In this document: piece after piece, positions 5,030 through 62,808 of the stretch | How positions within the stretch are numbered: the stretch's first letter is position 1 | How the letters are laid out: every line of letters begins with the position of its first letter | DNA from: a virus | Lineage: Duplodnaviria; Caudoviricetes | Strand: one strand, 5' to 3' | DNA length: 62,808 bases | IMG/VR virus record: IMGVR_UViG_3300044568_000638 | Span: 1 to 62,808 of that record | Program-made: the position numbers and the translations under genes | Notes under the pieces: generated by a model | Told to the model about the DNA's origin: nothing | Database searches by the model: none | Seen by the model: only the letters and a program-made list of their open reading frames with translations

Positions 5030-5434
5030 ATGCCATACACTAAAGAAAAAGCTAAGATGCCAGAAGGGTTTCACGACCTTGGAGAAGAACTTAAATCCAT
5101 TTCTATTTCAATGGGGGATGATGAAGGAAATGATGAATCCCCTAGCATTCATTACCCATCGTTGTATTTTGAGAATGCTGAAGCATTGAGCAAACTTCCA
5201 AAAGAAGGAACTGCTACCATTTATTTTAAAAAAGCAATGGAAAAAAAAGAAACAGTGATGCGTGATGGAAAAGAAACAAAACGGCATTGCGTTGAGCTTT
5301 GTATTTGTGGAATTAAACCCAAAGGCGCAAGCAAAATGGAATCCACAGCAGAAAAAGAAGATCCAGAAGATGCTATTGAAATGGGACTAGCTGAAGCTGG
5401 CGAATCCGAATCCGAAGAATACGAGAAAGACTAA
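5030..5434 (+). CDS. Acidic virion protein with scaffold-like C-terminal motif (possible inner capsid/staple-like protein)
   Basis: ATG at 5030 right after upstream stop; DAIEMGLAEAG near C-terminus. Confidence 0.5.
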   Translation: MPYTKEKAKMPEGFHDLGEELKSISISMGDDEGNDESPSIHYPSLYFENAEALSKLPKEGTATIYFKKAMEKKETVMRDGKETKRHCVELCICGIKPKGASKMESTAEKEDPEDAIEMGLAEAGESESEEYEKD

Positions 5435-12238: not shown

Positions 12239-13519
12239 ATGATTTTAAATAGCTCATTAAAAGAACAAATACACAATATTTTTATTTCCAAAAAAGACAC
12301 TGGAATAAATAGTGTTTATATTGGTTACAAATATGTAAATGGTGTTAAAACAAATGAAATAGGTCTTGTTTTTGGTGTAAATAAAAAGATTTTAGAATCA
12401 GATTTACCAAAAGATTATATACTTCCAAAGCAAATTAATTTAAATGGGAATAATGTAAAAACAGATGTGGTTGTAACTCCTGAAGTTAAATTAATGTCAT
12501 GTTATCCATCAGGTGATCCAAATATAACAAGACTTTTATCCGTTCCAGAAGCACCAACTCCATTAAAAGGAGGAATGCTGATAAGGCAATTTCCTACAGG
12601 GTGGGTGCGTGACCCTATTAATCCTAACGCATATAGTTTTAATGTTGGAACACTAGGTTTTTTTGCAAAAGATAACATAGATGGAAGAGTTGTTGGTGTT
12701 ACAAATAGACACGTTGCTGTTTATAATGGTGAAATTGCAGGAGAAGCGGATCTTAATCAGCAATTAAATAACCCAGATAATACTGGTGAAAAAATAACAT
12801 GGATTGTTGATAGTCAAAAATATCTTCCAAGCGCATCAATTTCTGCTGGAGTTTCGTTTAATACTATTGCATTTGAGGGGATTAAAAGATATACTCCTTT
12901 TTATTATAGTCAACCAAATTATACTGATTCAGCTTTAATTATTCCAAAACTAGGATACGTTGATAATAATTCATATCAAGTATGGCAACCTATAGATCAA
13001 CCAACTTACCCAACATCATTGCCGTTTGCAACAACAGAAGAATTAGATGGAATTCTTATTTCAAATCCTAAAGTATATTGTACTGGAGTTACAAGTGGGC
13101 CTATTGGATGGGGAACTGGTAATTGTAGTATAAATATACTTGGAATTGGTTATAGCACTGTTATATCTTTAAATGGTAAAAACACAACTTGGTCAGATCA
13201 AATAACTATGCAAACACCATTAGGAATTACTCCACTGGCTTCTGGTGATTCTGGATCTTGCGTTATGGCTGATATTGGTGGTGTTAAAAAAATAATTGGA
13301 TTATTCTTTGCTGGAAATAATGATTTTGCTGTATTTAATAGAATTGACAAAGTTGCGAATGAGATGAACATATCTGCGTTTACAACACCAATAGATACAT
13401 CAATACCATCATTAAAGCTTTATTCAGCTTCATTGTCTGAATATGGAAATTCTAAAACAATTTCTGTAAATGGAAAAACATATTATCAATCTGGATTAAC
13501 AAAAAATATTTATACATAA
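12239..13519 (+). CDS. Trypsin-like (PA clan) serine protease
   Basis: GTLG, TNRHV (His), DSA (Asp), GDSGS (Ser), IIGLFFAG. Confidence 0.8.
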   Translation: MILNSSLKEQIHNIFISKKDTGINSVYIGYKYVNGVKTNEIGLVFGVNKKILESDLPKDYILPKQINLNGNNVKTDVVVTPEVKLMSCYPSGDPNITRLLSVPEAPTPLKGGMLIRQFPTGWVRDPINPNAYSFNVGTLGFFAKDNIDGRVVGVTNRHVAVYNGEIAGEADLNQQLNNPDNTGEKITWIVDSQKYLPSASISAGVSFNTIAFEGIKRYTPFYYSQPNYTDSALIIPKLGYVDNNSYQVWQPIDQPTYPTSLPFATTEELDGILISNPKVYCTGVTSGPIGWGTGNCSINILGIGYSTVISLNGKNTTWSDQITMQTPLGITPLASGDSGSCVMADIGGVKKIIGLFFAGNNDFAVFNRIDKVANEMNISAFTTPIDTSIPSLKLYSASLSEYGNSKTISVNGKTYYQSGLTKNIYT

Positions 13520-13913: not shown

Positions 13914-14855
13914 ATGGGTGGAGCAAAAACAGTCAACGCAAGCAGCTACATTAGCAAACCTGATTCGTCTAGGGACATAGCTATTCTTATGGCTATGCAG
14001 CAAGCCCAGATGGGGCAGCAAGCACAACAAGCTGCATTGATGAAAGCTGCGTCTGAGATGCCTCCACAGCAACAGACTTATGATCCAATGCAAGAGTCTA
14101 AGCGTCTTGCAGAGATTGGGATGGGTAATATCCAAAGAGCAAGAGAGCTTGAAAAACAAACATCTCCAGCTGCCGCTGCAATGCGTCAAGCTCAAGCTAA
14201 AGAACTAGCTACATTAACTTCTCCAGAAGGAACTAATCAATACATTAATGAATGGGCTAAACGCCAAGGACTTATTCAAGGCTTTGAAACTGGTTTACAA
14301 GATTCAAGTATTGGAAGATCTGCAACATATGATTCCGCATTAAAAGCAAGGCAAAACTACGAACAACAAAATCTAGCATTGCAACAACAGTTGTTGCAGC
14401 AAATGCAAGCCCCAGTTGGTGGAATTGATCCAACATCATCTATTGCTGCCCAAGAATCCGTTAAAGGTCAAAACTTGCAATCAATGCAAAATTGGCAAAA
14501 TGCAATGTATGGTAATGTTGGTGGATACAATCAATCTGTAGCTGACCAAATGGCGCAAATTGGAACTGCCTTCCAAAATACACAGCAGACAGCAGGGCAA
14601 AATCAGCAAAATTATCAAAATGCAATGATGCAAAATCAAGCTCAAAACTATGCAGCCAAGAATGCAATGAATTCAGCATATTTACAAGCTGCTGGAAGTG
14701 TTGCTCAAGGAGCAATTAGTGGGGCTGCTGGAGCTTATGGTGGAGCTGGAACTGGAGGATTTGGATCACAATCAGAAATGTTAAAACATACTGCACCCGG
14801 AACAACTGGGTCATATAATGCTGGAATGGGATGGGTTCCCCGTGCTGCTGTATAA
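13914..14855 (+). CDS. Ejection/internal virion protein 1
   Basis: Gln/Ala-rich helical, MGG start, Gly/Ala hydrophobic tail. Confidence 0.7.
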   Translation: MGGAKTVNASSYISKPDSSRDIAILMAMQQAQMGQQAQQAALMKAASEMPPQQQTYDPMQESKRLAEIGMGNIQRARELEKQTSPAAAAMRQAQAKELATLTSPEGTNQYINEWAKRQGLIQGFETGLQDSSIGRSATYDSALKARQNYEQQNLALQQQLLQQMQAPVGGIDPTSSIAAQESVKGQNLQSMQNWQNAMYGNVGGYNQSVADQMAQIGTAFQNTQQTAGQNQQNYQNAMMQNQAQNYAAKNAMNSAYLQAAGSVAQGAISGAAGAYGGAGTGGFGSQSEMLKHTAPGTTGSYNAGMGWVPRAAV

Positions 14856-14858
14856 TTT

Positions 14859-15626
14859 ATGAAACGACCAGATCCAACATTTAGTTTACAAGGATGGTTG
14901 AATCAATCAAAAGCTCAAATGGGAGCTTTACAGAACCAAGCTAATTCGCTTCGCGCTTTTTCATCACAGGCTCCAGCAATGCAGTCTTTTGATGCCGCTA
15001 AAACGTCTCAACAGGCATCTGAGTTTGGAATGGATAACATCCAAACCTCTAAAGAATTTGAACGCTTACTTAATCCAGAAACTGCTAAAATGCGTCAAGG
15101 ATTGGGAGATCGTGTCGCTGAAGCTACTAATCTTGATGCTACAAAAAAGTGGATGGATCAATGGGCGATTAAAAGTGGACTAGGAAGTGATAGCCTTATT
15201 GGACGTTCCGCTATTTACGATCAAGCGACACAGGAAGGAAGACAAGCTAAATTACAGAACTTGCAAATCCAACAAGGGTATTTGTCACAAACTCCATCTC
15301 CTATTGGTGGACTTGATCCAGCATCTATTATTGCAGCAGAACAAGCCGCGAAAGCTCAGAATCTGCAATCAATGCAACAATATCAAGGAAACGTGATGCA
15401 GGGATCACAACAATTAAATCAATCGACAACAGATTGGATTAATAGTAACCTTGGTCAGTTGCAGAAAATAAATCAAGTTGATCAGCAGAATCAATCTAAT
15501 TACGAGCAAGCAATGTTGAAGCAAGCGCAACAAATGGCAGCAAGTGAGAATGCCTCCAAAGGAGCTATGATAACAACTGGAGGAGCTGTTGCTGGAGCAG
15601 CTATTGGTGCGGCAATTATTATATAA
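14859..15626 (+). CDS. Ejection/internal virion protein 2 (paralogue of protein 1)
   Basis: Shares IGRSA.YD and P.GG.DP.S.IAA....K.QNLQSMQ; ends GAAIGAAIII. Confidence 0.7.
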   Translation: MKRPDPTFSLQGWLNQSKAQMGALQNQANSLRAFSSQAPAMQSFDAAKTSQQASEFGMDNIQTSKEFERLLNPETAKMRQGLGDRVAEATNLDATKKWMDQWAIKSGLGSDSLIGRSAIYDQATQEGRQAKLQNLQIQQGYLSQTPSPIGGLDPASIIAAEQAAKAQNLQSMQQYQGNVMQGSQQLNQSTTDWINSNLGQLQKINQVDQQNQSNYEQAMLKQAQQMAASENASKGAMITTGGAVAGAAIGAAIII

Positions 15627-16463
15627 ATGGAACAACTAATAAATAAAACAATAAATAAAATAACAGAATGGAATAAAAGATGGCCTAGAGCAGTAGTTTT
15701 GTGGAGTGGAGGAAAAGACTCCACGGCATTGCTTCATCTTATTAAATTTAAAGCGGGAATTGATCTTCCAGTCATTCAATATCGTGAACCAAAAATGCGA
15801 GAACGATATGCGTATTCTGACAAGCTAATAAAAGATTGGAAGTTGGAAGTGTACGATTATCCACCGAATAGGGTTTCAATTGCTGACGGCCCAGACGTTG
15901 AAACTGGAGAGTTGCGTTTTGACTTTATAAAATATTACCAATGGGGAAAACAATCTGCCGTTTGCCTTTCTCTAGGAACAGAGCGTCCAAAGGATGGAGA
16001 AGATTATTTGTGTGGGCTTACAGACCTATTGCAACGTCCTACAGGAACTTTTAATTGGCCTTGGGGGGCAGTATATATCGGGACAAAATATTCAGATACA
16101 GATTTAATTAAAGGCCATGTACCACTTGCTGTTGATATTCGATATGCTGACGATTCGCCAATGTCGCTTTATCCGCTCCGAGATTGGACTGATAAAGACA
16201 TTTTTCAATATTTGGAAGAAGAAGGAGTAAAACCTGATCCAACACGATACATCAAAAGCTGGGATACTTGGGGAAACAACAAAGACAAATCGCTTAATGC
16301 TGACTTTTATCCAGTTTGCTTTAATTGCATTAACAGACATGAAGGAAAATACGTTGATTGTCCTAAGTTGAATGCTAAAATATCAAACATTTCTCACCTT
16401 GCTCCATACGAGGATTTGGTAAACGAAGACTTAGGTTTTCGTCCTGTTACATGGAACAAGTAG
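15627..16463 (+). CDS. PAPS-reductase-family PP-loop (adenine nucleotide alpha-hydrolase) protein
   Basis: SGGKDS, YPLRDWT..DIF.YL, C-terminal CxxC...C. Confidence 0.85.
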   Translation: MEQLINKTINKITEWNKRWPRAVVLWSGGKDSTALLHLIKFKAGIDLPVIQYREPKMRERYAYSDKLIKDWKLEVYDYPPNRVSIADGPDVETGELRFDFIKYYQWGKQSAVCLSLGTERPKDGEDYLCGLTDLLQRPTGTFNWPWGAVYIGTKYSDTDLIKGHVPLAVDIRYADDSPMSLYPLRDWTDKDIFQYLEEEGVKPDPTRYIKSWDTWGNNKDKSLNADFYPVCFNCINRHEGKYVDCPKLNAKISNISHLAPYEDLVNEDLGFRPVTWNK

Positions 16464-16738
16464 AATTTGACTGTAAGTCATGTGGTGCTTGCTGTGCATT
16501 TAAATGGTCATGGCCTGTTTTTAAGAGAGATAGATCAGATGCAATAAATATTCCAAATGAAATGGTAAGAACTGACTATCCATTAATGGAAACATATAAT
16601 AATAGATGCATTGCGTTAGATGGAAAAGTTGGTGAATCTGTGTGTTGCAAGATATACAATGATAGGCCAAATTCTTGCCGTAAATTTGAACCCGGCAGTG
16701 ATCTTTGCAAAGAAGCAAGAAAAAAACTTTTGACTTAG
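16451..16738 (+). CDS. YkgJ-like CxxCxxCC Zn/Fe-chelating protein
   Basis: CKSCGACC...C..L...CKIYNDRPNSCRKF. Confidence 0.85.
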   Translation: MEQVEFDCKSCGACCAFKWSWPVFKRDRSDAINIPNEMVRTDYPLMETYNNRCIALDGKVGESVCCKIYNDRPNSCRKFEPGSDLCKEARKKLLT

Positions 16739-16820: not shown

Positions 16821-17285
16821 ATGGGAGGCAAGAAAAGCGCACCAAAACCAGAACCTAAACCAAAAATTGATCCAATGATGGTTTATTTGCAACAACAACA
16901 AGTTCAGCAAGCACAGCAAGCCGCTGCTTCTGCTGAAGCTCAACAAAAAGCGTTGATGCAATCGCAAATTCAAGCTGGAGCGCAAGCTGAACTAACTGGC
17001 GAGCAAGCTGCAAAACAAGGATTGGCAACCGCTGAATCAATGCAGTCCATTCGTGACGCAAACGCACTTCAGTCCGCTCAAACGGCTGCATCTACATCAG
17101 GACAACAAGTGACAGGTGGTGGATTTGACGTTAATGCTGCACGTCAGCAGGCTTTAACTAATCTTGGAGCTGGAACATCAATGATTCCACAAACTCCAGC
17201 AAACATTGGTGCAATGGGACAACCCAAAGCAGCTAATATGTTCTCGCTTCCTCAATCATCCGATCTAAAGTTCGGTGGATCTTAA
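16821..17285 (+). CDS. Ejection/internal virion protein 3
   Basis: MGGKKS start, Gln/Ala-rich. Confidence 0.65.
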   Translation: MGGKKSAPKPEPKPKIDPMMVYLQQQQVQQAQQAAASAEAQQKALMQSQIQAGAQAELTGEQAAKQGLATAESMQSIRDANALQSAQTAASTSGQQVTGGGFDVNAARQQALTNLGAGTSMIPQTPANIGAMGQPKAANMFSLPQSSDLKFGGS

Positions 17286-42292: not shown

Positions 42293-42874
42293 ATGGCAAA
42301 GGTTATTATTGGAATGATACCGCCCGGCGGTTGGCACTACTTTGATTCAGACGCAAAGTTGACAGCACATTCGTATGAAGGACTTCTTAAAGTTGTTGAA
42401 GACTATCGCGCAGAGAATCATTTACCTATTGGTGACGTTGAAGGTGACGTTAATAGCTACATTTGTTCTAACTGGCCTAATTTTTGTCATGGGGTTGATA
42501 TGGTTGTGGTAACAAGTGTTCATCCTGAGTCTGCACAGCAATCGTTACTAAACGACATTACAATTTGGGCAAGGAACCTCCTTAATTCAAAAACTACAAA
42601 CAATCTAGTTTCTAATGAACTTGCAGAGGAACGAGCAAAAATCTGCAAAGGTTGTCAACACAATAAAAACTGGCGCGGTGGATGTTCGTCTTGCATTGCG
42701 GCAGCAGATAGAATCAGTGCAAGCGTTCGCAATGGTAGAGACACACAATCGTCAACTAAATTAGGTGGATGTAACATCATGCGACATGATAACCGTAGCG
42801 CAATTTTCTTTGACAAGAATAAACTTTCACAAGCAACCTCCACTCCAGATAATTGCTGGATGAATATAAAATAA
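42293..42874 (+). CDS. Cys-rich protein between terL and portal
   Basis: PPGGW.Y, R..IC..C..N, CxxC, terminal CW; 8 Cys. Confidence 0.7.
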   Translation: MAKVIIGMIPPGGWHYFDSDAKLTAHSYEGLLKVVEDYRAENHLPIGDVEGDVNSYICSNWPNFCHGVDMVVVTSVHPESAQQSLLNDITIWARNLLNSKTTNNLVSNELAEERAKICKGCQHNKNWRGGCSSCIAAADRISASVRNGRDTQSSTKLGGCNIMRHDNRSAIFFDKNKLSQATSTPDNCWMNIK

Positions 42875-42877
42875 ATT

Positions 42878-45289
42878 ATGGCAGACGTTCTTAAACCGCT
42901 TCCCGCATTCGTTACTGATAGTTATGCGAATAAATCTCCAAGGATTACTAACTCACACGACAAGCCTCGCATTCTTGATCTTGATGTTATTGATCCTACT
43001 GCTGGCAATAATTCCGATACTGTTAATAAAGATACTCTTCAAGTTAAACGCACGTTCAAGGATGCCGCTCAAGCGTACTCTGCATATCGCAGGCTTAAAC
43101 AGCAGAATATCGAGAGGAACAAAAAAAACCAACTCATTCAGAAAAAATTAAACAATGAGCCTCCATATAGTGCTAAAAAACTGGAAAGCATGGGTCAAAA
43201 TTGGCGGTCTAATCGCCCTACTGGTTTTCTTTCCACGATGGTTAGCCGAATTCAACCTCCTTTTAGGCAAGTCATCGAACAGGCTGCAAGTCTCACTTTC
43301 TCAAAATATCCAGTAGAAGGAGTAGACGCTGAAAATAAAACTGAAGTATTCCGTGAGGAGATTACTAAGACGATTCGTGGATGGTCTGGACATGATGATT
43401 TGTTGTCGCAAATTGTACATGAGAACACTACTTTTGGCTTTTGTGGCGTTTGTTGGGATGATCTTCGTGATTGGAAACCAGAATTTCTAAGGCAAGATTA
43501 CACGTTTTTTTCTATTGAGACTCCACAGGAGGTTGAAGGAACTCCAATCTGGGCAAGAAAACGTAGATATCAAATTGCCGAATTGCTTCCTATTTTGGAA
43601 GATCCAATTATGTCTGCAATGGCTGGTTGGCATATTAAGAATCTAGTTAAGTCGATTAATAATGCTACTCCTGCTGGCAGAACTCTTGATTCTGATGATG
43701 ATGCTCGCCGTTATGAAGACTGGATTCGCGAAGGGAGTTATGGAGCAAGCTACGAGAATGACGCTAAGTATGTTGAGCTAGGTGAGTTGCTTATTCGTGA
43801 GCCACATGGAAAGATTAGCCGATTCGTGTTTGACGATAAGAGCGGTGACGAGATTTGTACGCAGATTGATCGCTACAATAAGATGAGCGAATGCTTGTCG
43901 TTGTTTGCTATTGAAATTGGCAATGGCAACCTAATGGGTAGCCGTGGTGCTGGACGCGATCTCTACAATACGCATATCGCTGTTGATAAAGCTCGTAACC
44001 TTGTTGTTGATAACGTATATCTCAAGGGAATGCTGTTGCTCAAGAAGGGGCCAAATGCTAAAGCTGGTGCAGCTCCGCTAACTGTTCATCACCCTATCTG
44101 CTATATTGCGGAAGGATATGAAGTTATTCCACAAAGTCTTCCTGCTGACGTTGATGATTTCTTGCGGTTAGATCAGTTCATTAGTGGACTGGCTGAAATC
44201 CAAGTTGGGACGTTTTTGCCCGGTCAAGCTATCGGGGAGAAGCAAGGTCGCGCAACTGCATCTGAAGTTAATCGTGTTGCAGCTATCGAGAATCAACTTC
44301 GCGAAGGGATCTTGATGCGCTGGACAAAACAATACTCTAAGTGCGTTGAACGTATGCAACGTGGTATCTGCCATCCAGAACACGTTAAGTCTGCCGCTGA
44401 ACTAAAGACACGTCTTGATATTGCACGTCAAATGGTTCCTAACGCAGTCTGGGCTAGGCGCGAAGTTGTCGATGCTTTTGATCGTTCCGTTATGGATCTT
44501 CCATCATTCCTAGTTCCTTTTGAAATTCCAGAACATCTCGATGAGGAGGCAATCAACTGCTGCCTTAACATGATGGAACGCAATCTTCCTCCAAGTGATA
44601 TCCTCCTCATGGCGTATAGCCCTGCCGAAGAACTACTCCCTGATACTCAAGCGCAGGACAACGCCATGTTGGATATGATGGTGCAACGCTACACTGGTAA
44701 TCCTAATGTAAACCAAGACGAGTTGTTAAAACTCGATTGGTCGCGGAAGTTGGGTGAGAGCATTGCAAGTCAAGTTATCTTGCCAAAAGATCAAGTTGAG
44801 ACGCTGGCTATTGAGGCTACACGTCAACAATTGGTTGAATTGCAATCCATCATTGCTGGGCAAGAAATTCCTGTTTCACCACGGGATAACGATATTGTTC
44901 ACTTGGATGTCATGTCTCAAAAGCTAATGCCATTGATTGAGCAAGCTCCTGCTGGCGCATTGCCACCTGAGATGGTTCAGCCATTCATGCAAGCATTGCG
45001 TCACTTTATGATGCACGTTCAACAAGCTAAGGCTAAGGGAACGGATGTTGCTAAATACGAGCAATCGGCTAAACAAGCGTTTGCACATCTTACTGCTGGA
45101 CACAACACTCCTCCACCTCCAGAACTACAACCAGCGGCAGCAATGCCATCTCAGCGTGGTGGTGGCGGAGGAAGACAAGCCGCAGCGCAATCCAGAAATG
45201 TTGCTGAAATGACAGAGGCATCATCACCAACCCAAATGGGAGCGATTAACGAGATTGCTAACCCACCTAAACCACCAACAGCAGCGTAA
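42878..45289 (+). CDS. Portal protein (P22-like size)
   Basis: 803 aa after terL; ATASEV motif; helical C-terminus. Confidence 0.8.
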   Translation: MADVLKPLPAFVTDSYANKSPRITNSHDKPRILDLDVIDPTAGNNSDTVNKDTLQVKRTFKDAAQAYSAYRRLKQQNIERNKKNQLIQKKLNNEPPYSAKKLESMGQNWRSNRPTGFLSTMVSRIQPPFRQVIEQAASLTFSKYPVEGVDAENKTEVFREEITKTIRGWSGHDDLLSQIVHENTTFGFCGVCWDDLRDWKPEFLRQDYTFFSIETPQEVEGTPIWARKRRYQIAELLPILEDPIMSAMAGWHIKNLVKSINNATPAGRTLDSDDDARRYEDWIREGSYGASYENDAKYVELGELLIREPHGKISRFVFDDKSGDEICTQIDRYNKMSECLSLFAIEIGNGNLMGSRGAGRDLYNTHIAVDKARNLVVDNVYLKGMLLLKKGPNAKAGAAPLTVHHPICYIAEGYEVIPQSLPADVDDFLRLDQFISGLAEIQVGTFLPGQAIGEKQGRATASEVNRVAAIENQLREGILMRWTKQYSKCVERMQRGICHPEHVKSAAELKTRLDIARQMVPNAVWARREVVDAFDRSVMDLPSFLVPFEIPEHLDEEAINCCLNMMERNLPPSDILLMAYSPAEELLPDTQAQDNAMLDMMVQRYTGNPNVNQDELLKLDWSRKLGESIASQVILPKDQVETLAIEATRQQLVELQSIIAGQEIPVSPRDNDIVHLDVMSQKLMPLIEQAPAGALPPEMVQPFMQALRHFMMHVQQAKAKGTDVAKYEQSAKQAFAHLTAGHNTPPPPELQPAAAMPSQRGGGGGRQAAAQSRNVAEMTEASSPTQMGAINEIANPPKPPTAA

Positions 45290-45290
45290 T

Positions 45291-46250
45291 ATGGGTGGAG
45301 CTAACACAGTAAAAGGAAATTGGGTAACAGAAAAGAAAACGCCACAAGCGTTGGGTGATGATAATCTTGCTAAAAATCCAGAATTAGCTAGACCATATAT
45401 TGATTTGACAATGTTTGGGAGAGGGAAACAAAATGTTTCTTTAAGTGAGATGATTGCTCCATATTATGGTGGAGAAGAGACATTGAAATCTGAGATTGAA
45501 AAAGCAAAAGCGTCTTCTTTAGAAGACAAGACAAATGTTTTTAATTCTCCTGCTATTTCACATAATTTAGGCATGAAGATGGATTATGATAAAATTGGAG
45601 AAAAAATTCCAGTTTCTTCAGGCGATTATAACTCATCATATAGCCGAACAAATAAAGATATTAAAATTACAGATCCATATAAGTCTGCATCCTCAATCAG
45701 GGAAATTCTTAATTTAGAAAAATCATCCAACCCACAAGATGTAAGAAATTTTAGTAAATTTTTGCAAAAAAACAATTACACAAAACAAGAGTTAGAAAAA
45801 TCAATTGAAAATCCTATAAGTGATTTCATTGGAGTCCTTGAACATGAAGTTGGACATCATTCAGCTAAAGGAAAAGATATAGAAGAAAGTTTATTTGGAG
45901 CAACGCACATGGATAAACCCGTTGAGTTGGCAAATCAATTGGGACGAATTCAAAGAGAAGCGTTTTATTTATATGGAAAGCGGTTTACTCCAGAAACACT
46001 CACTGATTTTATGGAGCAACAAAAAGTTGTTCCAGATAATGAAAGATTTCAAAACTTTTCTCCAGATACAAGACGTGGATTAAGGAAGATCTTAGATTTA
46101 CATACATCACCATCTGATTCTGATTATAGAGATTATCAGTATGTGAAAAAAGTGATTCCAGAATTTGTAAAAACTAAAACTAAACCAATGTCTTCATACG
46201 ATGCAATAAATGCAGGATTAGAAGAAAGCATTAAACCTACATCTGCGTAA
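45291..46250 (+). CDS. Putative cargo protein 1 with HExxH zincin motif
   Basis: MGGANT start, HEVGHH, KPMSSYDAINAGL. Confidence 0.65.
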   Translation: MGGANTVKGNWVTEKKTPQALGDDNLAKNPELARPYIDLTMFGRGKQNVSLSEMIAPYYGGEETLKSEIEKAKASSLEDKTNVFNSPAISHNLGMKMDYDKIGEKIPVSSGDYNSSYSRTNKDIKITDPYKSASSIREILNLEKSSNPQDVRNFSKFLQKNNYTKQELEKSIENPISDFIGVLEHEVGHHSAKGKDIEESLFGATHMDKPVELANQLGRIQREAFYLYGKRFTPETLTDFMEQQKVVPDNERFQNFSPDTRRGLRKILDLHTSPSDSDYRDYQYVKKVIPEFVKTKTKPMSSYDAINAGLEESIKPTSA

Positions 46251-46251
46251 T

Positions 46252-46815
46252 ATGGGAGGATCTAACACAGGAGTAAAAGCAAGTTATGTTCCAGAAGGAC
46301 AAAGCTCTGGATATAATAATGATTTTTATGACTGGTCAAAGAACATGGGTAAATATGAAAAGCAAAATAACCCATTAAAACCAAGTGCTTTTGTTTACGA
46401 AGAATCAAAAGCCCCACAAGTTACTGCAACAAGCCCAGTAGATAGAGCTTCGGTTTATTCAAAACCAGTTCAAGTTGACAGAGCAAGAGTTGTTCAAAAA
46501 GGATTTAATCCAGAAGAAGCGCAATACGATTACTTGACTGCTGAGAAAGCTGGAATTAAACCTAATGATTACAACAAGCATATGGGATCAGTTGCTCCAG
46601 TAACTGAAGAACTTTTCAATAAATATAAAGAATATGGACTGCCTGAAGGAGAGGCATACGTTATCCTTAAAGGAGCAAACCATCCAACACATAATTACAC
46701 GGTTAAAGCAGAAAATGAACGTGGATTTGAAATCAAGAAATTCGGAGACAGATATTTCTCTGTACCTAAACAAAAACCAACGTCATCATATGACGTAATC
46801 AACACAGAACTATAA
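46252..46815 (+). CDS. Putative cargo protein 2
   Basis: MGGSNT start, YDY..A..H..S...LKG..HPT....E, KPTSSYDVI. Confidence 0.65.
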   Translation: MGGSNTGVKASYVPEGQSSGYNNDFYDWSKNMGKYEKQNNPLKPSAFVYEESKAPQVTATSPVDRASVYSKPVQVDRARVVQKGFNPEEAQYDYLTAEKAGIKPNDYNKHMGSVAPVTEELFNKYKEYGLPEGEAYVILKGANHPTHNYTVKAENERGFEIKKFGDRYFSVPKQKPTSSYDVINTEL

Positions 46816-46819
46816 TACT

Positions 46820-47086
46820 ATGGGCGGACTAAACACAACACAAGGCGGAACTAACCAAGCAAAACGAGACAGACTAGAGTTTGAAAAAAACTTTAAAGGA
46901 AATCCTCCTCCAATGTCAGAAGAGGAATTGGCAACCTATGCTCGTTTTGATGCTCAATCTGATGGAGCTAATTCTTATAAAAGATCAGCGTCTGTAATTG
47001 ACCCTGCATCTGTGATTAAGAAAAATCAAGAATTGCTTAAAAAACCAATGTCTTCTTACGAAGCTATTGACGTTGGTCTAAAATAA
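46820..47086 (+). CDS. Putative cargo protein 3
   Basis: MGGLNT start, KPMSSYEAIDVGL. Confidence 0.65.
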   Translation: MGGLNTTQGGTNQAKRDRLEFEKNFKGNPPPMSEEELATYARFDAQSDGANSYKRSASVIDPASVIKKNQELLKKPMSSYEAIDVGLK

Positions 47087-47113
47087 GGAAACAATAAATA
47101 AATAAATAATATT

Positions 47114-47353
47114 ATGAAATGGACTAGCGCAGACAGCGTTGTTTTACGGGAATATTTAATCAAATCTAGCAATAAATTAATAGAGTATTACCGTTCACGC
47201 ATTCCATTGTGTGACGGGAAGACTATTGAGGAAGTTGCTCTTCAAGCCAAGTTCAAAGAAGGCTTTGAATTCGCTATTCGCGAACTGCGAGACTTGTCTT
47301 CTATGGACGAAGAAAACCAAGACGCATCAGTAGGAAATTTCACATCAATGTAA
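47114..47353 (+). CDS. Small helical head-module protein
   Basis: Typical position between portal and scaffold. Confidence 0.6.
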   Translation: MKWTSADSVVLREYLIKSSNKLIEYYRSRIPLCDGKTIEEVALQAKFKEGFEFAIRELRDLSSMDEENQDASVGNFTSM

Positions 47354-47359
47354 AAATAA

Positions 47360-47515
47360 ATGAGAACAAAACAACAAGGTCTATACGCAAATCTTAACGC
47401 TAAACGCGAAAGAATCGCTGCTGGCAGCAAGGAAAAAATGAGGAAGGTTGGATCTAAAGGCGCACCAACTGCTAAAGCATTTAAAGAATCAGCAAAAACA
47501 GCAAAGAAAAAATAA
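47360..47515 (+). CDS. Small basic protein
   Basis: GLYAN..AKR.RI.AGS.EKMRK.GSKGAPT.KAF. Confidence 0.75.
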   Translation: MRTKQQGLYANLNAKRERIAAGSKEKMRKVGSKGAPTAKAFKESAKTAKKK

Positions 47516-47757
47516 TGGAAAAAAGATTTGCTAAAGTAGTAAAAAATCCAGAAACAGGAAGGACTAAGACTGTCAAGTTTGGTCAGGCTGGAAAGGCTAA
47601 AGATGGAGGGGATCGAATTCGCCCCGGCACAGCTAAAGGAGACGCTTACTGCGCTCGTTCAGCTGGAATTAAAGGCGACTGGAAATCAGATCCCAATAGT
47701 CCAAATAATTTAAGTCGCAGAAAATGGAAGTGCATAGGCAGAAAATCAGCAAAGTAA
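47515..47757 (+). CDS. Small basic protein
   Basis: V.FGQ, YCARS, DPNS...LSR.KW.C. Confidence 0.75.
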   Translation: MEKRFAKVVKNPETGRTKTVKFGQAGKAKDGGDRIRPGTAKGDAYCARSAGIKGDWKSDPNSPNNLSRRKWKCIGRKSAK

Positions 47758-47804
47758 TTTTACCGAATAGTAAAAATACATAATCCCAATAAAAATATAA
47801 AAAT

Positions 47805-49073
47805 ATGACAGACACAGATGACAACGTAGTAGAACCAGACGTAACAGGCTTTGGTAATCCTAGCCTCAACTCAGATCCAATAGATGAAGATACATCCTCA
47901 CAAATTGATTCACTCCTTGATGAAGCTATCGGAGAAACTACTGAAACGATTCAACCTCAAGTGGAGGAATCCGCACAGGAACCAGATGGCATTCTGGACG
48001 AGCCTGTCGCTCCAACACCTGTTGAGCAAACAAGTGTCGCAGAAACTGCAACACCCACCCCAGTTGTTCAAGAACCTAAAGTTGAAATCGACCCCGAAAT
48101 CGCCGCTATCGAGCAGCCTCGTAATCTTTCGGAAAAAAATCAAAGTAACTGGCGAAAACTTCAAGAAACCGCATCAACATACAAACAGCAAGCCGCTGAA
48201 GCCGAAATTCTGCGTCAACGTCTCGCTGAAGCCGAAGGTAATCGTGCTGAAACCCCGAAAGACTACGACGAACTCAAAAAGTTCCGTGCGATCTTCGATA
48301 TCAAAAATGACCCAGAGTTCAAAAGCAAATACGTTGAGCCGATCCAAAACGCCAAAGAAAGCGTCTACAACATCCTCCGCAAGCATGGCGCGGGTGACGA
48401 AGTAATCAAGTCAATTGAGGCTGCTGGAGGCCCAACAAGGGTTGCTGATGATTTCTGGAGGCAAGATGCTTTTTCAAAGCTCCCACTAACGGATTCCGAA
48501 CGTCTCAAGCGTGGTCTTGTTGACGTATCTGACCTACAAGAAAAACAAGAAGCTGAAATTGCTAATGCTGCTGAACACGCTGAAGAAATTCTTGTTCAAC
48601 GTGAAACTGTAAATAAAGAATGGTATGATAATACAGTTAAAGACATTGACAATACCATTGACGAAATCACTAAAGAATTGCCGTGGGCTAGATATGCTGA
48701 ACCAGCACCTAATGCAACTCCAGAGCAACTTATTCAGATTCAGAAACACAATGAGACAGTTTCTGGTCTTGCACAGAAGTTTGAGTCAGCACTATGGCCT
48801 ACAACAGCTCAAGAACGAGCAAATGTAGCCGCATCTGCTGTGTTTTCCCATGTGCTAACAGAGCAACTTCGCACTGAACAAGCTCAGAAAAGCGCATTGA
48901 TGCAACAGATTAGTCAATTGACTAATGAAAACAATAAACTAAAGGGATCATCCAAGATTCCAAAGCCATCAATTAATACTCCAGCAAGTAACAAGCCAAG
49001 TTCTATGCACGACCGCATTAAAATGAATGCTTCTGATGCAATTGACCTCGGTTTGGATGAAGCTGGATCTTAA
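47805..49073 (+). CDS. Capsid scaffolding protein
   Basis: Acidic disordered N-terminus, coiled coil, upstream of capsid gene. Confidence 0.7.
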   Translation: MTDTDDNVVEPDVTGFGNPSLNSDPIDEDTSSQIDSLLDEAIGETTETIQPQVEESAQEPDGILDEPVAPTPVEQTSVAETATPTPVVQEPKVEIDPEIAAIEQPRNLSEKNQSNWRKLQETASTYKQQAAEAEILRQRLAEAEGNRAETPKDYDELKKFRAIFDIKNDPEFKSKYVEPIQNAKESVYNILRKHGAGDEVIKSIEAAGGPTRVADDFWRQDAFSKLPLTDSERLKRGLVDVSDLQEKQEAEIANAAEHAEEILVQRETVNKEWYDNTVKDIDNTIDEITKELPWARYAEPAPNATPEQLIQIQKHNETVSGLAQKFESALWPTTAQERANVAASAVFSHVLTEQLRTEQAQKSALMQQISQLTNENNKLKGSSKIPKPSINTPASNKPSSMHDRIKMNASDAIDLGLDEAGS

Positions 49074-49317: not shown

Positions 49318-50394
49318 ATGACACCTAAAGTATCGCCAGATGAGCGAATCACGATGAACGCATTGGAATCTGCTGACCCGTTTGCAAGACCCGGACAGGT
49401 AATTCCACCTGTAAATCAGAATCGAGTTGCTAAAAAGCCGGGGCGTAAGCCGAAAGTTGAGGAAAAAGTCAAATCTGAGGCAAAAACTCAAAAAGTTGAG
49501 GAAAATGTCAAGATTGAAGAGGAAAAAACTCTTGAAAACATTGAAATTCCAGTTTTGACGGAAAAAAGCATACATATTTCCGACAAAACACCTGAAATTC
49601 CCATTGTAGAGGAAGTTCAAGCACAAGAACTAAACAATACATTGCCATATGAGCAACCTATAGTAGAGTCACGCTCAAGTGATGGGCTTCCATCGTATCG
49701 TTGCGAGTTTGCAGGACGTGACATCTTTGTTGGCTTTCCATGTCATAAAACAACTAACCCTGTAACGGCATTCACGATGATTGCAATGGCACTTGACTTC
49801 GGACGCGACAAGATTCGCTTCGATATGTCAATTGGTAACGCAATGATTTACCATTCTCGGAACATACTTGTGAAAAAGTTCCTAGAAACGGACGCAAAGT
49901 GGTTGTTTATGATGGATGATGACATCATTCCTTCAATTGGTCGTCCAGCATGGATGCGTTCAACTGTTCATGCAGCTCGTAATCTTCCAGATTTGCCCCT
50001 ACAACGCCATATCCTTCACAGATTGATAGGTAGCGGCAAAACACTTGTTGGAGGGGCTTATTTTGGCCGTCAGGAAGGTACGCCAATAATGTGTTCGGAT
50101 CGTTCCCTTGATTCTAAAGCTCGCGCCTATACTGATGTGATTGCCCCAGTTGATTGGATTGCTACAGGGTGTCTATTGATCCACAGAAAGGTATTCAATG
50201 ACATTAAAGAAAAATTCCCTGAATTATCGCCGCAGAATCCGAATGCTCCTGATGCGGCATTCGATTACTTCCATCCTATTAATTCTCAAACAGGACAAGA
50301 TGTTTCGTTCTGCAAGAGAGCAAAGCAAGCTGGACACCAACCCCACATTGACCTCGGAACACCAGTTTTCCATATCGGATACAAAAGCTATTAA
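49318..50394 (+). CDS. GT-A (GT2-like) glycosyltransferase with charged N-terminal extension
   Basis: SRN, LFM.DDD, GCLLIHRKVF, GQDVSFC, H.G. Confidence 0.8.
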   Translation: MTPKVSPDERITMNALESADPFARPGQVIPPVNQNRVAKKPGRKPKVEEKVKSEAKTQKVEENVKIEEEKTLENIEIPVLTEKSIHISDKTPEIPIVEEVQAQELNNTLPYEQPIVESRSSDGLPSYRCEFAGRDIFVGFPCHKTTNPVTAFTMIAMALDFGRDKIRFDMSIGNAMIYHSRNILVKKFLETDAKWLFMMDDDIIPSIGRPAWMRSTVHAARNLPDLPLQRHILHRLIGSGKTLVGGAYFGRQEGTPIMCSDRSLDSKARAYTDVIAPVDWIATGCLLIHRKVFNDIKEKFPELSPQNPNAPDAAFDYFHPINSQTGQDVSFCKRAKQAGHQPHIDLGTPVFHIGYKSY

Positions 50395-50970
50395 ATGAAA
50401 CACAAGATTTACTCTTATTACGAAAGCATTCAGACGTTGCCTCAAGCAGAGCAATTCGCTTGTGCTAATTGGTGGAAGACATCGTGGGAAAAAAATGGAT
50501 GGGATTGCGTGATGCTAAACAAGTCCCACGTTGGAGCATCCAATCTCCACACAAAACTCGTTTCAAAGCTAGGGAAAGTTCTCCATATACTTCCTGACAA
50601 CTTGCGAGGTTATTATCCACAGCTAGTCGCTCGTTATCTTCGCTGGTGCGGTCTTCACGCCGCTGGTGGTGGGTGGATGTCTGATTACGATGTCGTTAAT
50701 CTTGGATTTACTCCATCTGACGCTATTCCTTATCAAGGTGAGTTAAACATGATAACTGATCGTCCGTGCTATCTCTTTTATGCAAGTCAAGAAAATTGTG
50801 CAGCGGCTATTCACAAGTTTATCTCGGAAGAATTCATCCTTGATGGATTGTTGAAAAAAGAGTCCGATATTCTCAACATAAAAGATAGACTATCTGCTAT
50901 CAGTGATAAAGTTCGTCACATTGATAAAAGTGACATTCCTAAGTCAGAAGTGATGGCATCTTTGATGTAA
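50395..50970 (+). CDS. GT-A DxD (GT32-like) glycosyltransferase
   Basis: SW...GW, R......GG.MSDYD. Confidence 0.6.
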   Translation: MKHKIYSYYESIQTLPQAEQFACANWWKTSWEKNGWDCVMLNKSHVGASNLHTKLVSKLGKVLHILPDNLRGYYPQLVARYLRWCGLHAAGGGWMSDYDVVNLGFTPSDAIPYQGELNMITDRPCYLFYASQENCAAAIHKFISEEFILDGLLKKESDILNIKDRLSAISDKVRHIDKSDIPKSEVMASLM

Positions 50971-50974
50971 GTTA

Positions 50975-51436
50975 TACAATGCTTACTTGGTGGTGAGTTC
51001 GGTGCATAGCAGATCCCACATAATGGGATACTGCTAAAAATACACGATGCTTTCTCGTATGGAGCCGTTCGTATGCTTTTATGAATCACTCGGCCAGAGG
51101 TCGTCCTTTGCCTAGCCTTACTTTAGTTTACACCTTTCGGTGAGAGCCAGTTTGATTCGCAGACCTCTTCCTTTCGGAAGAAGCTATTAAGTTGGTAGTC
51201 TGTTACCCCTCCCAACGCCTCTCCTTCACACGGGAGTCCTTTTCAGGTTTGTTCCGCAGTCATGGGATAGAACCATGCCGTGCTACGCTCATCTTATTTT
51301 AGGGCTACTTTTGGGAACTGCCGTGAAGCTTCATACAAAAGGAAAAACCCGCCTTGATATTCACAGTATCGAGACGGGTTATTTTGCTGGAGAGTAAAAT
51401 TGTTTCGCCTGAATCCTGTGAAAATTCAAGTAAGAT
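50975..51436 (-). ncRNA. Candidate large structured ncRNA
   Basis: No long ORF; many hairpins, three with GAAA tetraloops on the minus strand; upstream promoter. Confidence 0.6.
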
Positions 51437-51442
51437 GTTAGA

Positions 51443-51531
51443 AATATTGCATTGTTTTTTTAACAGGTCAAATGTTTTTTTCATCGTGACACAATTATTT
51501 TTTCTATGTCATGGAATGTTTTTTGTTGACA
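51443..51531. promoter_or_regulatory. Divergent promoters
   Basis: Minus: TTGACC (51466-51471) N17 AATATT; plus: TTGACA at 51526 with poor -10. Confidence 0.5.
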
Positions 51532-51559
51532 TATCCGTGAATATATCGCAGTTCTAAAT

Positions 51560-51784
51560 TCACTTCGGCAGATAGGTTCCGTATACCTATGACTCCGTGG
51601 AAGTCACAGAATCCACAAACAGGCCGTATTAACAAGCCCAACGTGCCGGGGCGAACAAACAAGAAAATTGTGCAAAATTGCAATGCGATTCCATGCACAC
51701 TTGAATGTCGCCCAATAGATCTTCTAAAGGGTCGGTTCAAGCAGAACAAACCTAAACAAACAAACAAAACAGAAAACAAATATT
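51560..51784 (+). promoter_or_regulatory. Structured 5' leader of capsid gene
   Basis: Nested stems, possible pseudoknot, A/C-rich tract before ATG. Confidence 0.55.
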
Positions 51785-52984
51785 ATGGCTCAAGAATGTA
51801 TCCCACTAGCGACAATTCAAAATTTCGCTTCTAAAGACGTAAATCGTATCATCGGTCAGATCGCTAAGGTCTTGGCTCGCAAATCCCCATACATCAACTC
51901 GATTGATGGTGGAACCCTTCCATCCGTTTCGGACGTTGTTCGTAGCGTGGTTGAGGAAATGGCAGTTCCTGCCGCAAGCCTCGCTGCTCCTACCTTCGTT
52001 AACGACACGGGTCTTTGTGGTGTCGGTGCAACCCCTGACGTTGTTGGCTCGACTGAGTATCAGTTTCAACTCCAGACCCTCCGTGGTGCTGGCCCTCGCG
52101 TTTGTGTAAAACAAGCTCGCACCGCCTTTAAGGGTTCCTACCTCCAAGCTCAAGTTTCTCTTGAGAAAACAATCCTTCAGATCATCAATGCTGACATCCG
52201 TTATCAATACTTGATTCAGTCTGGTATCAAATACGTTGTCAACAGCACATTCTCGTTTGGAAATAACCTCACGGGTGATATGCAGCAGATCAACACCCAG
52301 TTCGCCGCGCATCTCCCCGATGCACAGATGAACTTCAAAACCCTCTATCGTATTGGCACGTTCCTCCGCGAAGAGATGCTTGCAGAACCTTTCGCATCGA
52401 AAGATGGAGAGTTCTTCCAAGTTCTTGCTTCCGCTGATCAGATCGAAGCCTTCCGTAACGATGCAGACGTAAAAGAAGACTTGCTCTATCTTACCGCTGG
52501 ATCGTTCAAATTGGGTGATGAGTCCATTTCTGGCTATCAGTTTATGGGTTATCGTGGTTTTGCTTTCGGTATCGACCAACAGCCACTTCGCGCAAGCGGT
52601 TTCGACGGCAGCGGCAACCTCGTCCTCGTAAACCCAATCGTCAGCACCGCTGTTACGAATGGTTTTGCCCAACGCCGCAACCCAGCTTGGGTAGCTGCTG
52701 AGTATGAAGTCATGTTCGTTATCGGTGGTGAAGCATTCAAACGTCTTGTGCCTGAACAATACGTTGGCGAAGGAACCTTCCGTTTCGCTCCTCAACTCGC
52801 TATGGGTGAGCTGGAGTGGACGTATTTCCGGGACAACGATTGCAATCTTTATGGTGATTTCGGTCAGCATATTTATCAAATCCAACGCGCTATTCAGCCA
52901 ATCCGCCCACAGAACGTGTGCGCCATTGTCTACAAGCGTTGCCCATTTGATGGCAATCCCCTTCCTTGTTCAACTGAACTGTAA
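51785..52984 (+). CDS. Major capsid protein
   Basis: 399 aa, strong codon bias, follows scaffold, own leader and downstream hairpin. Confidence 0.8.
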   Translation: MAQECIPLATIQNFASKDVNRIIGQIAKVLARKSPYINSIDGGTLPSVSDVVRSVVEEMAVPAASLAAPTFVNDTGLCGVGATPDVVGSTEYQFQLQTLRGAGPRVCVKQARTAFKGSYLQAQVSLEKTILQIINADIRYQYLIQSGIKYVVNSTFSFGNNLTGDMQQINTQFAAHLPDAQMNFKTLYRIGTFLREEMLAEPFASKDGEFFQVLASADQIEAFRNDADVKEDLLYLTAGSFKLGDESISGYQFMGYRGFAFGIDQQPLRASGFDGSGNLVLVNPIVSTAVTNGFAQRRNPAWVAAEYEVMFVIGGEAFKRLVPEQYVGEGTFRFAPQLAMGELEWTYFRDNDCNLYGDFGQHIYQIQRAIQPIRPQNVCAIVYKRCPFDGNPLPCSTEL

Positions 52985-62310: not shown

Positions 62311-62808
62311 ATGTCTTGCAATTATCTATTTAACGATTACGGAAACTACAATTATTCATATGATAATAGCGGAATTAAATCTATAGGTGCAACTGGAGCA
62401 ACTGGGCCTATTGGTGCTACAGGTTTAGGGGTAAATGGAGCAACTGGAGAAATAGGAGCTACTGGGCCAAGTGGAGGGCCAACAGGTGCTACTGGAGTTT
62501 CTGGTGGTGTTGGATCAACTGGAGTCTCTGGTGGTGTTGGATCAACTGGAGCTACTGGAGTTGGCGCGACAGGTTCTCAAGGTGCTACTGGAGTCTCTGG
62601 TGGTGTTGGATCAACTGGAGCTACTGGAGTTGGTCTAACTGGAGCTACTGGAGTTGGCGCGACAGGTTCTAAAGGTGCTACGGGTATTCAAGGATCAACA
62701 GGCATTCAAGGTTCTACAGGCATTGGCTCAACTGGAATACAAGGAGCAACAGGACTTACAGGATCTGTTGGATCACAAGGAAGTACTGGTTCTACAGGCA
62801 TTGGCTCA
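62311..62808 (+). CDS. 5' part of junction-spanning collagen-like tail fibre
   Basis: MSCNYLFND... then GAT repeats, in frame with 3-2498 via the overlap. Confidence 0.85.
62645..62808. repeat. Terminal overlap, right copy
   Basis: Matches 1-164. Confidence 0.95.

Follow-up and report, generated by a model that had tools for sequence, protein, structure and literature searches.

Unrelated post-portal proteins of an uncultured freshwater phage share an N-terminal leader and often a C-terminal peptide resembling the end of the putative scaffold

How are proteins chosen to be enclosed in a phage head and delivered with the DNA? This choice is known for very few model phages. The IMG/VR record IMGVR_UViG_3300044568_000638 (positions 1 to 62,808, analysed at its full length of 62,808 bases and called the window below) is a complete record of an uncultured freshwater phage, in which three open reading frames (ORFs) between the putative portal and scaffold genes, here called cargo A, B and C, have unrelated middles and matching ends. 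We propose that these ORFs encode head-internal cargo recruited by a scaffold-like C-terminal peptide, and that their N-terminal Met-Gly-Gly (MGG) leader is a second, lineage-specific address; we would give this reading an even chance. The genes concerned are the following (aa, amino acids).

45291..46250, plus strand: cargo A, 319 aa, with MGG leader, putative zincin-like domain with invariant HEVGH, and C-terminal tag KPMSSYDAINAGL (46182-46220).
46252..46815, plus strand: cargo B, 187 aa, with MGG leader, a domain ending ...DRYFSVPKQ, and C-terminal tag KPTSSYDVINTEL (46774-46812).
46820..47086, plus strand: cargo C, 88 aa, with MGG leader, a small near-core PN.FGRD-type module, and C-terminal tag KPMSSYEAIDVGL (47042-47080).
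47805..49073, plus strand: putative scaffolding protein, 422 aa, acidic, sited between the portal and capsid genes.

Cargo A reads MGGANTVK...KPMSSYDAINAGLEESIKPTSA, cargo B MGGSNTGVK...KPTSSYDVINTEL and cargo C MGGLNTTQ...KPMSSYEAIDVGLK, with the consensus start MGG.NT and end KP.SSY[DE][AV]I..[GE]L. The putative scaffold ends ...RIKMNASDAIDLGLDEAGS, its C-terminal motif being SDAIDLGLDEAG at 49032-49067. The initial annotation had described the three ORFs and their matching ends exactly as they stand, and the scaffold end that it quoted, like the MGGAKTVN start of another ORF (13914-14855), is where it was placed. In the six-frame translation of the window, S.?[DEN][AV]I[DNE].[GE]L, a motif derived from these four C-terminal sequences themselves, has four matches, each of them 0-9 residues ahead of a stop codon, that of A, B, C or the scaffold. 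In 100 shuffles it has none; the four matches exceed chance. The synonymous sites in the codons of both end motifs differ between genes, and the MGG glycine codons vary among GGT, GGA, GGC and GGG. These codon differences argue for conservation or selection at the peptide level, and recent gene conversion is no explanation for the likeness.

How closely does the cargo tag resemble the scaffold end? In 2377 six-frame ORFs (224,782 residues) of four complete genomes, a pattern drawn from the cargo alone, [DEN][AV]I[DNE].[GE]L, has 11 matches, all of them 0-17 residues from a C-terminus. Four are in cargo proteins, three in scaffolds and four in homologues of a further protein that the initial annotation did not mention, all four homologues being found. 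The fourth scaffold ends with DAIDLGI, outside the pattern. Within the scaffold, only one block is more conserved than the last 20 residues, which score 0.91 (mean 0.77).

5030..5434, plus strand: small acidic conserved protein, 134 aa, with an HYPSLYF core and a scaffold-like motif near the C-terminal end.

The 5030-5434 protein, which has no PHROGs or Pfam match, reads ...EDAIEMGLAEAGE..., with DAIEMGL at 5369-5389. Its motif, EDAIEMGLAEAG, stands 14 residues from the end and resembles the scaffold end SDAIDLGLDEAG more closely than do the cargo tags. The 75 homologues recovered across 80 loci retain it; [DE]AI[DE]xGL is the usual form, and some have DEIENGL.

Searches with single distant capsid proteins gave few loci, and a comparison of co-variation was possible in the distant record G006 only. 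Its capsid protein is 43% identical to that of the window, its scaffold is homologous (E 3e-8), and it has no MGG cargo genes. The G006 scaffold ends ...VDALDEIAQQVM, and the G006 homologue of the 5030-5434 protein has ...EDALDAIVSEKM at the homologous place. The pattern DAL[DE].I has three matches among the 795 ORFs of G006, two in the scaffold and one in the 5030-5434 homologue, and the window-type motif is missing from these 795 ORFs. In both genomes, the scaffold motif and the 5030-5434 motif resemble each other more than they resemble their orthologues across genomes. The scaffold end and the 5030-5434 motif have thus undergone a concerted change, from DAI.xGL to DALDxI, and such a change argues for a common partner of both motifs. 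A second copy of the scaffold end motif seems to be present near the scaffold N-terminus, in the window at 47805-47950 (...SQIDSLLDEAIGE); residues about 40-60 of the G006 scaffold read ...GDALDAILKKK, which fits the DAL[DE].I pattern.

The common partner could also be a protease or chaperone, in which case the C-terminal motif would be a signal for processing or removal, clearing the scaffold and trimming the other proteins, rather than a capsid-binding peptide. The motif does stand at the extreme C-termini of proteins whose presence should be temporary, above all the scaffold, and a protease-like ORF lies at 12239-13519 (phrog_20754, E 8.7e-10), in the region of a second cluster of MGG genes described below. 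Yet the sequences give no evidence of cleavage sites, a concerted change in two proteins suits any common partner without favouring a protease, and the known precedents of shared scaffold ends bind capsid protein (PMC6893505). We consider a processing signal improbable.

The region in which the cargo genes lie is bounded by two conserved genes:

42878..45289, plus strand: putative portal protein, 803 aa, assigned from its position after the large terminase (TerL) gene and its size.
47114..47353, plus strand: gene D, 79 aa, conserved in relatives, bounding the end of the variable cassette region.

The variable genes begin 2 nucleotides past the stop of the putative portal gene. Both the portal end and gene D are present in 47 loci, the window included, which were not dereplicated and many of which are near-identical. 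When ORFs are called crudely (minimum 50 aa, begun at the first Met from the portal stop onward, up to gene D), these loci hold 61, and 60 of the 61 start with MGG. Thirty-five end in the scaffold-like tag, 13 in a second type of end (PNLFGRD.SAPA...NK) and 13 in other ways. Gene number is 0 in four loci, 1 in 29, 2 in ten and 3 in four. Counted as unique MGG proteins, 30 of 63 are tagged, 18 have the second end and 15 another end, one of the 15 being a tag variant. The portal and scaffold genes are held together by 36 loci and the window, and four loci (L056, L058, L086 and L100) keep the scaffold and capsid genes with no post-portal MGG gene.

The cargo proteins are mosaics of A, B, GSGFLGG, E/H and small PN.FGRD modules and a QGMSG repeat, whose order and fusions differ. 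For example, the GSGFLGG module in every case lacks a stop of its own and runs in frame directly into the tag (L008) or into the next module, whose own MGG is then internal (L002, L005, L025 and L040). B+E+tag and GSGFLGG+E+tag also occur. On its own, the E module (139 aa) has an MGG start and no tag, and the small PN.FGRD near-core module occurs with and without the scaffold-like end. Eight further cargo architectures gave no Pfam or PHROGs match, and B gave no usable match in the protein atlas search.

Both ends can also be absent from members of a given family. In the A family (n=45), 32 proteins have both MGG and tag (four of the 32 called with an upstream start), and the remaining 13, at 31-46% identity, have neither; one untagged A homologue is encoded in a different phage of 67.8 kilobases (kb), about 5 kb past its capsid gene and far from the portal. 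Similarly, in the B family (n=39) an MGG start is present in 20 proteins and the tag in 11, with two further variants, one of which is ...AEDAIEQGL. Judged from these alignments, the tags are add-ons to payload modules. The expectation of the initial annotation that payloads would be interchangeable among relatives while both end motifs were kept is borne out by these loci. Its strict two-address form is not, as the scaffold-like end is missing from about 40% of the MGG genes. Since 26 of the 61 ORFs are untagged, as are some near-core and some B-domain proteins, the tag is not required for every member.

Among the payloads, A is the one whose activity can be suggested. Eight residues are invariant in 25 aligned A-family sequences, namely E184, H185, E186, V187, G188, H189, H206 and E212, and these include an HExxH motif. 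The structural model of A has a predicted local distance difference test score (pLDDT) of 79.9, with residues 1-8 disordered and a short helix at 303-312 (YDAINAGLEE, pLDDT about 55) following a low-confidence linker. Foldseek with this model gave no match at E≤0.001. The top rows of VIA-align are HExxH enzymes (ArdC, Z 3.8; SPRTN, Z 3.5; YbeY, CapP and abylysin), all at Z below 4. We regard A as a putative zincin-like metallopeptidase.

Are these proteins delivered effectors at all? They could instead help to assemble or build the head or portal vertex, for instance as auxiliary scaffolds or as parts of a core or plug, and would then owe their scaffold-like ends to co-assembly with the scaffold. 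The small PN.FGRD module is found in most loci that have any post-portal gene, the motif-bearing 5030-5434 protein is a conserved core gene, and an enzyme-like motif is seen in no payload other than A. An accessory of this kind sits poorly, however, with a gene number of 0-3, with the four loci that keep scaffold and capsid genes and have no cassette gene, with the invariant HExxH of A, and with untagged homologues of A sited elsewhere in other phages. We think the accessory explanation unlikely.

The N-terminal leader has a distribution of its own. Among 356 crude ORFs of the four complete genomes, Gly-Gly is the commonest dipeptide after Met, with 19 cases, and all 19 are post-portal genes or members of a second cluster (the families of 13914, its paralogue 14859, and 16821). 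This cluster lies among large ORFs, one of which weakly matches the internal virion protein phrog_511 and another, weakly too, the protease phrog_20754.

13914..14855, plus strand: MGG-start protein of the second cluster, 313 aa, starting MGGAKTVN, among large putative virion proteins.
16821..17285, plus strand: MGG-start protein of the second cluster, 154 aa, with its own conserved C-terminal end NMFSLP...FGG.

The first of these was called an ejection protein in the initial annotation, which we would treat as a guess; the second is a fifth MGG-start ORF that was not listed there. The 16821 family has homologues in G002, G004 and G005, a C-terminal end NMF[SK]LP...L.FGG and an N-terminus of the form MGG-(polar/Lys-rich)-PDPMM, with a tandem duplicate in G002 and G004. 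The ORF at 14859-15626 is a paralogue of 13914 with a hydrophobic end, ...GGAVAGAAIGAAIII; its family starts with MKRPDP in the window, MGG in G004 and G005, and MAYQKPD in G002 and G003, and from these differing starts it follows that the MGG leader was gained or lost within one family. The invariant part of the leader is M-G-G followed by small polar residues, and Thr at position 6 varies.

The idea of an N-terminal address, which the initial annotation had raised, is strengthened by a second leader in other phages. The untagged A proteins and several untagged B proteins open with another common leader; P0308 of the A family and P0343 of the B family have it in the same form, MSWKDRAMEMI. 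This leader ends MIGG or MIYGG, aligning with the MGG of the window's lineage. Two unrelated payload families thus share a leader in each of two lineages, and the leader is lineage-specific; this is the strongest support for an N-terminal address. We know of no explanation for an MGG start in phages of bacteria. Speculatively, the leader might dock at the portal or core, be removed so as to expose Gly-Gly, or allow modification of the N-terminal glycine. A literature search on N-terminal glycine acylation in phage virions gave nothing relevant, and no acyltransferase family was found among the ORFs scanned.

The second leader also bears on whether the conserved ends act as protein at all. They might be DNA-level linkers for recombination, by which cassettes are swapped in co-infection, and have no protein-targeting function. 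Module shuffling is extensive and fusions fall at exactly these boundaries, where the stop of one cassette gene meets the start of the next in a conserved junction, TAAT(A)ATGGG. Linkers of this kind are nevertheless hard to reconcile with boxes that differ at synonymous sites within one genome and with varying MGG codons, with a C-terminal motif that recurs in the scaffold and the 5030-5434 protein, neither of which is a cassette, and with a different peptide leader common to A and B homologues elsewhere. We therefore rate the linker explanation as very improbable.

Several observations weigh against cargo recruitment by a scaffold-like peptide. A hidden Markov model (HMM) of 13 unique cargo tags, run against the 2377 ORFs, returned no scaffold at E≤10; the scaffold domains scored 0.7-6.4 bits, and such weak scores mean that the likeness of cargo and scaffold rests on about six shared residues. 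The scaffold end is near-invariant wherever cargo genes occur, so there is no variation against which to set the cargo tags, and the co-variation that we do see is between the scaffold and the 5030-5434-type protein, in two lineages. The 26 post-portal ORFs without a scaffold-like end count here too, as do some B-domain proteins that have no tag. Finally, both flanking labels are putative, that of the scaffold given from position, size and composition, and that of the portal from position and size. The kinship of the cargo motif with the scaffold end that the initial annotation had claimed therefore stands in part: the cargo pattern finds scaffolds, at C-termini only, and the scaffold end co-varies with the 5030-5434 motif, while the tag HMM misses the scaffold.

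The shell into which cargo would be loaded is better defined.

51785..52984, plus strand: major capsid protein, 399 aa, HK97 fold, from an AlphaFold2 model and Foldseek.

The AlphaFold2 model, built on an alignment of 71 relatives, has pLDDT 84.5 and a predicted template modelling score (pTM) of 0.82. With it, Foldseek matched 340 PDB chains at E≤0.001: the top match is the phage N4 capsid (E 1.6e-11), followed by the Sf14, Pan3 and GP4 capsids, with HK97 itself among the matches and a cargo-loaded encapsulin at rank 49. The protein atlas lead agrees (Phage_capsid_3/4, on a minority of members), and the modelled structure verifies the product as an HK97-fold major capsid protein. Sequence methods were silent: PHROGs and Pfam gave no match for A, B, C, D, the scaffold, portal or capsid protein, Pfam had no family in any of the 71 capsid relatives, and no convincing match came from PDB sequence searches in which capsid, portal and A were used singly or as profiles. 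Co-folding of the capsid protein with residues 40-88 of cargo C scored 0.00 in two runs without controls, which speaks neither for nor against binding.

We propose the following scheme for cargo recruitment. The genes between the portal and gene D would encode head-internal cargo built from shuffled modules, among them a putative zincin peptidase, the B domain and several others. The C-terminal peptide KP.SSYDAI..GL, carried on a flexible linker, would imitate the motif at the scaffold end and most likely dock the cargo at the site used by that end. This site is most plausibly on the inner face of the HK97-fold capsid protein, to which the tag would bind, and the cargo would be enclosed during procapsid assembly, packaged, and ejected into the host. 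The MGG start, common to the putative virion proteins 13914 and 16821, would serve as the second, lineage-specific address and might route proteins through the tail; docking at the portal or core and N-terminal processing are the candidate mechanisms.

A bolder extension, which we regard as unlikely, is that the post-portal region is a natural, programmable protein-delivery cassette. Whatever module is placed there would be loaded into the head through the scaffold-mimicking C-terminal peptide, and the lineage-specific leader, processed to Gly-Gly, would direct it to the portal or ejection path or to a membrane at infection. Removal of Met would expose Gly-Gly in MGG, and cleavage would do so in MSWKDRAMEMI(Y)GG. 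Injected effectors, for example a zincin disabling host defence, would then be swapped by cassette exchange.

Tail spike and fibre genes are also present in the window, and the following features lie around the cassette.

Plus-strand block from 35.7 kb onward: large terminase (TerL), 22% identical to the Pseudomonas phage AF terminase (E 4e-7).
42293-42874, plus strand: 193-aa ORF between TerL and the putative portal.
47360-47757, plus strand: genes E (51 aa, phrog_16028) and F (80 aa), small, very basic and conserved.

The 193-aa ORF was tried as an acetyltransferase and rejected, as it does not align with its positional counterpart in phage AF, an acetyltransferase. The putative portal is kept at 68-100% identity across 70 IMG/VR loci. 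It has no family, sequence or structure match in PHROGs, Pfam or PDB (as single sequence and profile), and profile comparison with the phage AF portal gave nothing. Genes E and F are 78% and 64% identical to ORFs of G007:C1 (about 62352-62743), a phage whose terminase, portal and capsid proteins are merely 22-25% identical to those of the window, a contrast that suggests either strong constraint or transfer between phages. At 49318-50970, after the scaffold gene and before the capsid gene, lie two conserved ORFs of 358 and 191 aa with no family match, whose homologues are present in G006; the site is unusual for genes of non-structural appearance. Upstream of the capsid gene, 50971-51784 is an 800-base stretch that has no long plus-strand ORF and no Rfam match. 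Among the putative virion genes, 15627-16738 encodes a PAPS-reductase-like domain (PF01507, E 4.6e-8) and also matches a CxxCxxCC zinc/iron-chelating domain protein (PF03692, E 2.6e-9). A-rich sequence without a Shine-Dalgarno motif precedes gene starts (45255-45290 and others). The GC content of the window is about 0.40, no tRNA genes were found in it, and it has no Rfam match.

The lineage is common in metagenomes, with 784 capsid relatives at E≤0.001 and the 70 IMG/VR loci; relatives measure 61.7-71 kb, some with direct terminal repeats. The first capsid homologue search yielded solely relatives at 90% identity or above, and tblastn with the portal or capsid protein found no cultured relative in the phage collection. 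L100 has 87% capsid identity, a GC content of 0.53 and no cargo genes. It is a 13-kb contig binned with an uncultured Chthoniobacter metagenome-assembled genome, which may be a hint of the host or a binning artefact and is weak evidence on the host.

From sequence alone, then, come short peptide labels on freely shuffled modules, one of them tied to the scaffold end by concerted change. They offer short, concrete peptides that can be tested as targeting signals for an HK97-fold shell, and they suggest a possible route for the exchange of injected anti-host functions between phages. If the proposal is true, the tags would help to annotate head-internal proteins of metagenomic phages that have no database matches. 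A literature search at the level of listings and abstract openings turned up no account of a natural phage system in which several shuffled modules bear scaffold-like tags.

Finally, parts of the scheme have parallels in known systems. In phage T4, the capsid targeting sequence (CTS) is a short N-terminal peptide common to the unrelated head-internal proteins IPI-III and Alt, for which it is a prohead address (PMC7411985). The CTS attaches to the scaffolding core, and the prohead protease gp21 cuts it off. Likewise, unrelated modules here share MGG (60 of 61 ORFs) or, elsewhere, MSWKDRAMEMI. In contrast to the CTS, the leader here has about three to six conserved residues and is accompanied by a second tag at the C-terminal end. 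For the scaffold-like tag, the closer parallel is CpmB of SaPI1, a parasite's alternative scaffold that alters capsid size. CpmB shares the C-terminal RIIK motif with the 80alpha scaffold and binds the same site on the capsid protein (PMC6893505). Here too, non-scaffold proteins carry the C-terminal motif of the cognate scaffold (in three of four genomes by pattern), whereas it is the phage itself that puts the motif on several unrelated modules. The RIIK motif is absent here, the motif being DAI[DE]xGL, and the proteins would work like the CpmB family without belonging to it.

Encapsulins load diverse cargo proteins through a short conserved C-terminal peptide that binds inside an HK97-fold shell. 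The window combines the same kind of shell with diverse proteins sharing a C-terminal peptide, but it is a complete DNA-packaging phage with TerL, a putative portal, and tail spike and fibre genes, its peptide resembles the phage's own scaffold end, and the encapsulin-type peptide consensus is absent. In HK97 (gp4) and lambda (C/Nu3), a C-terminal segment brings the protease into the procapsid; in lambda the genes are nested, so that the scaffold has this segment too. The modules fused in frame that keep an internal MGG start are reminiscent of such nesting. Unlike those systems, which load one essential maturation protease, the cassette has 0-3 dispensable, variable tagged proteins, of which A is a putative metallopeptidase and not a serine peptidase. 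In sum, the scheme works like T4 CTS addressing, CpmB mimicry, encapsulin cargo peptides and prohead protease targeting, and is a member of none of these.

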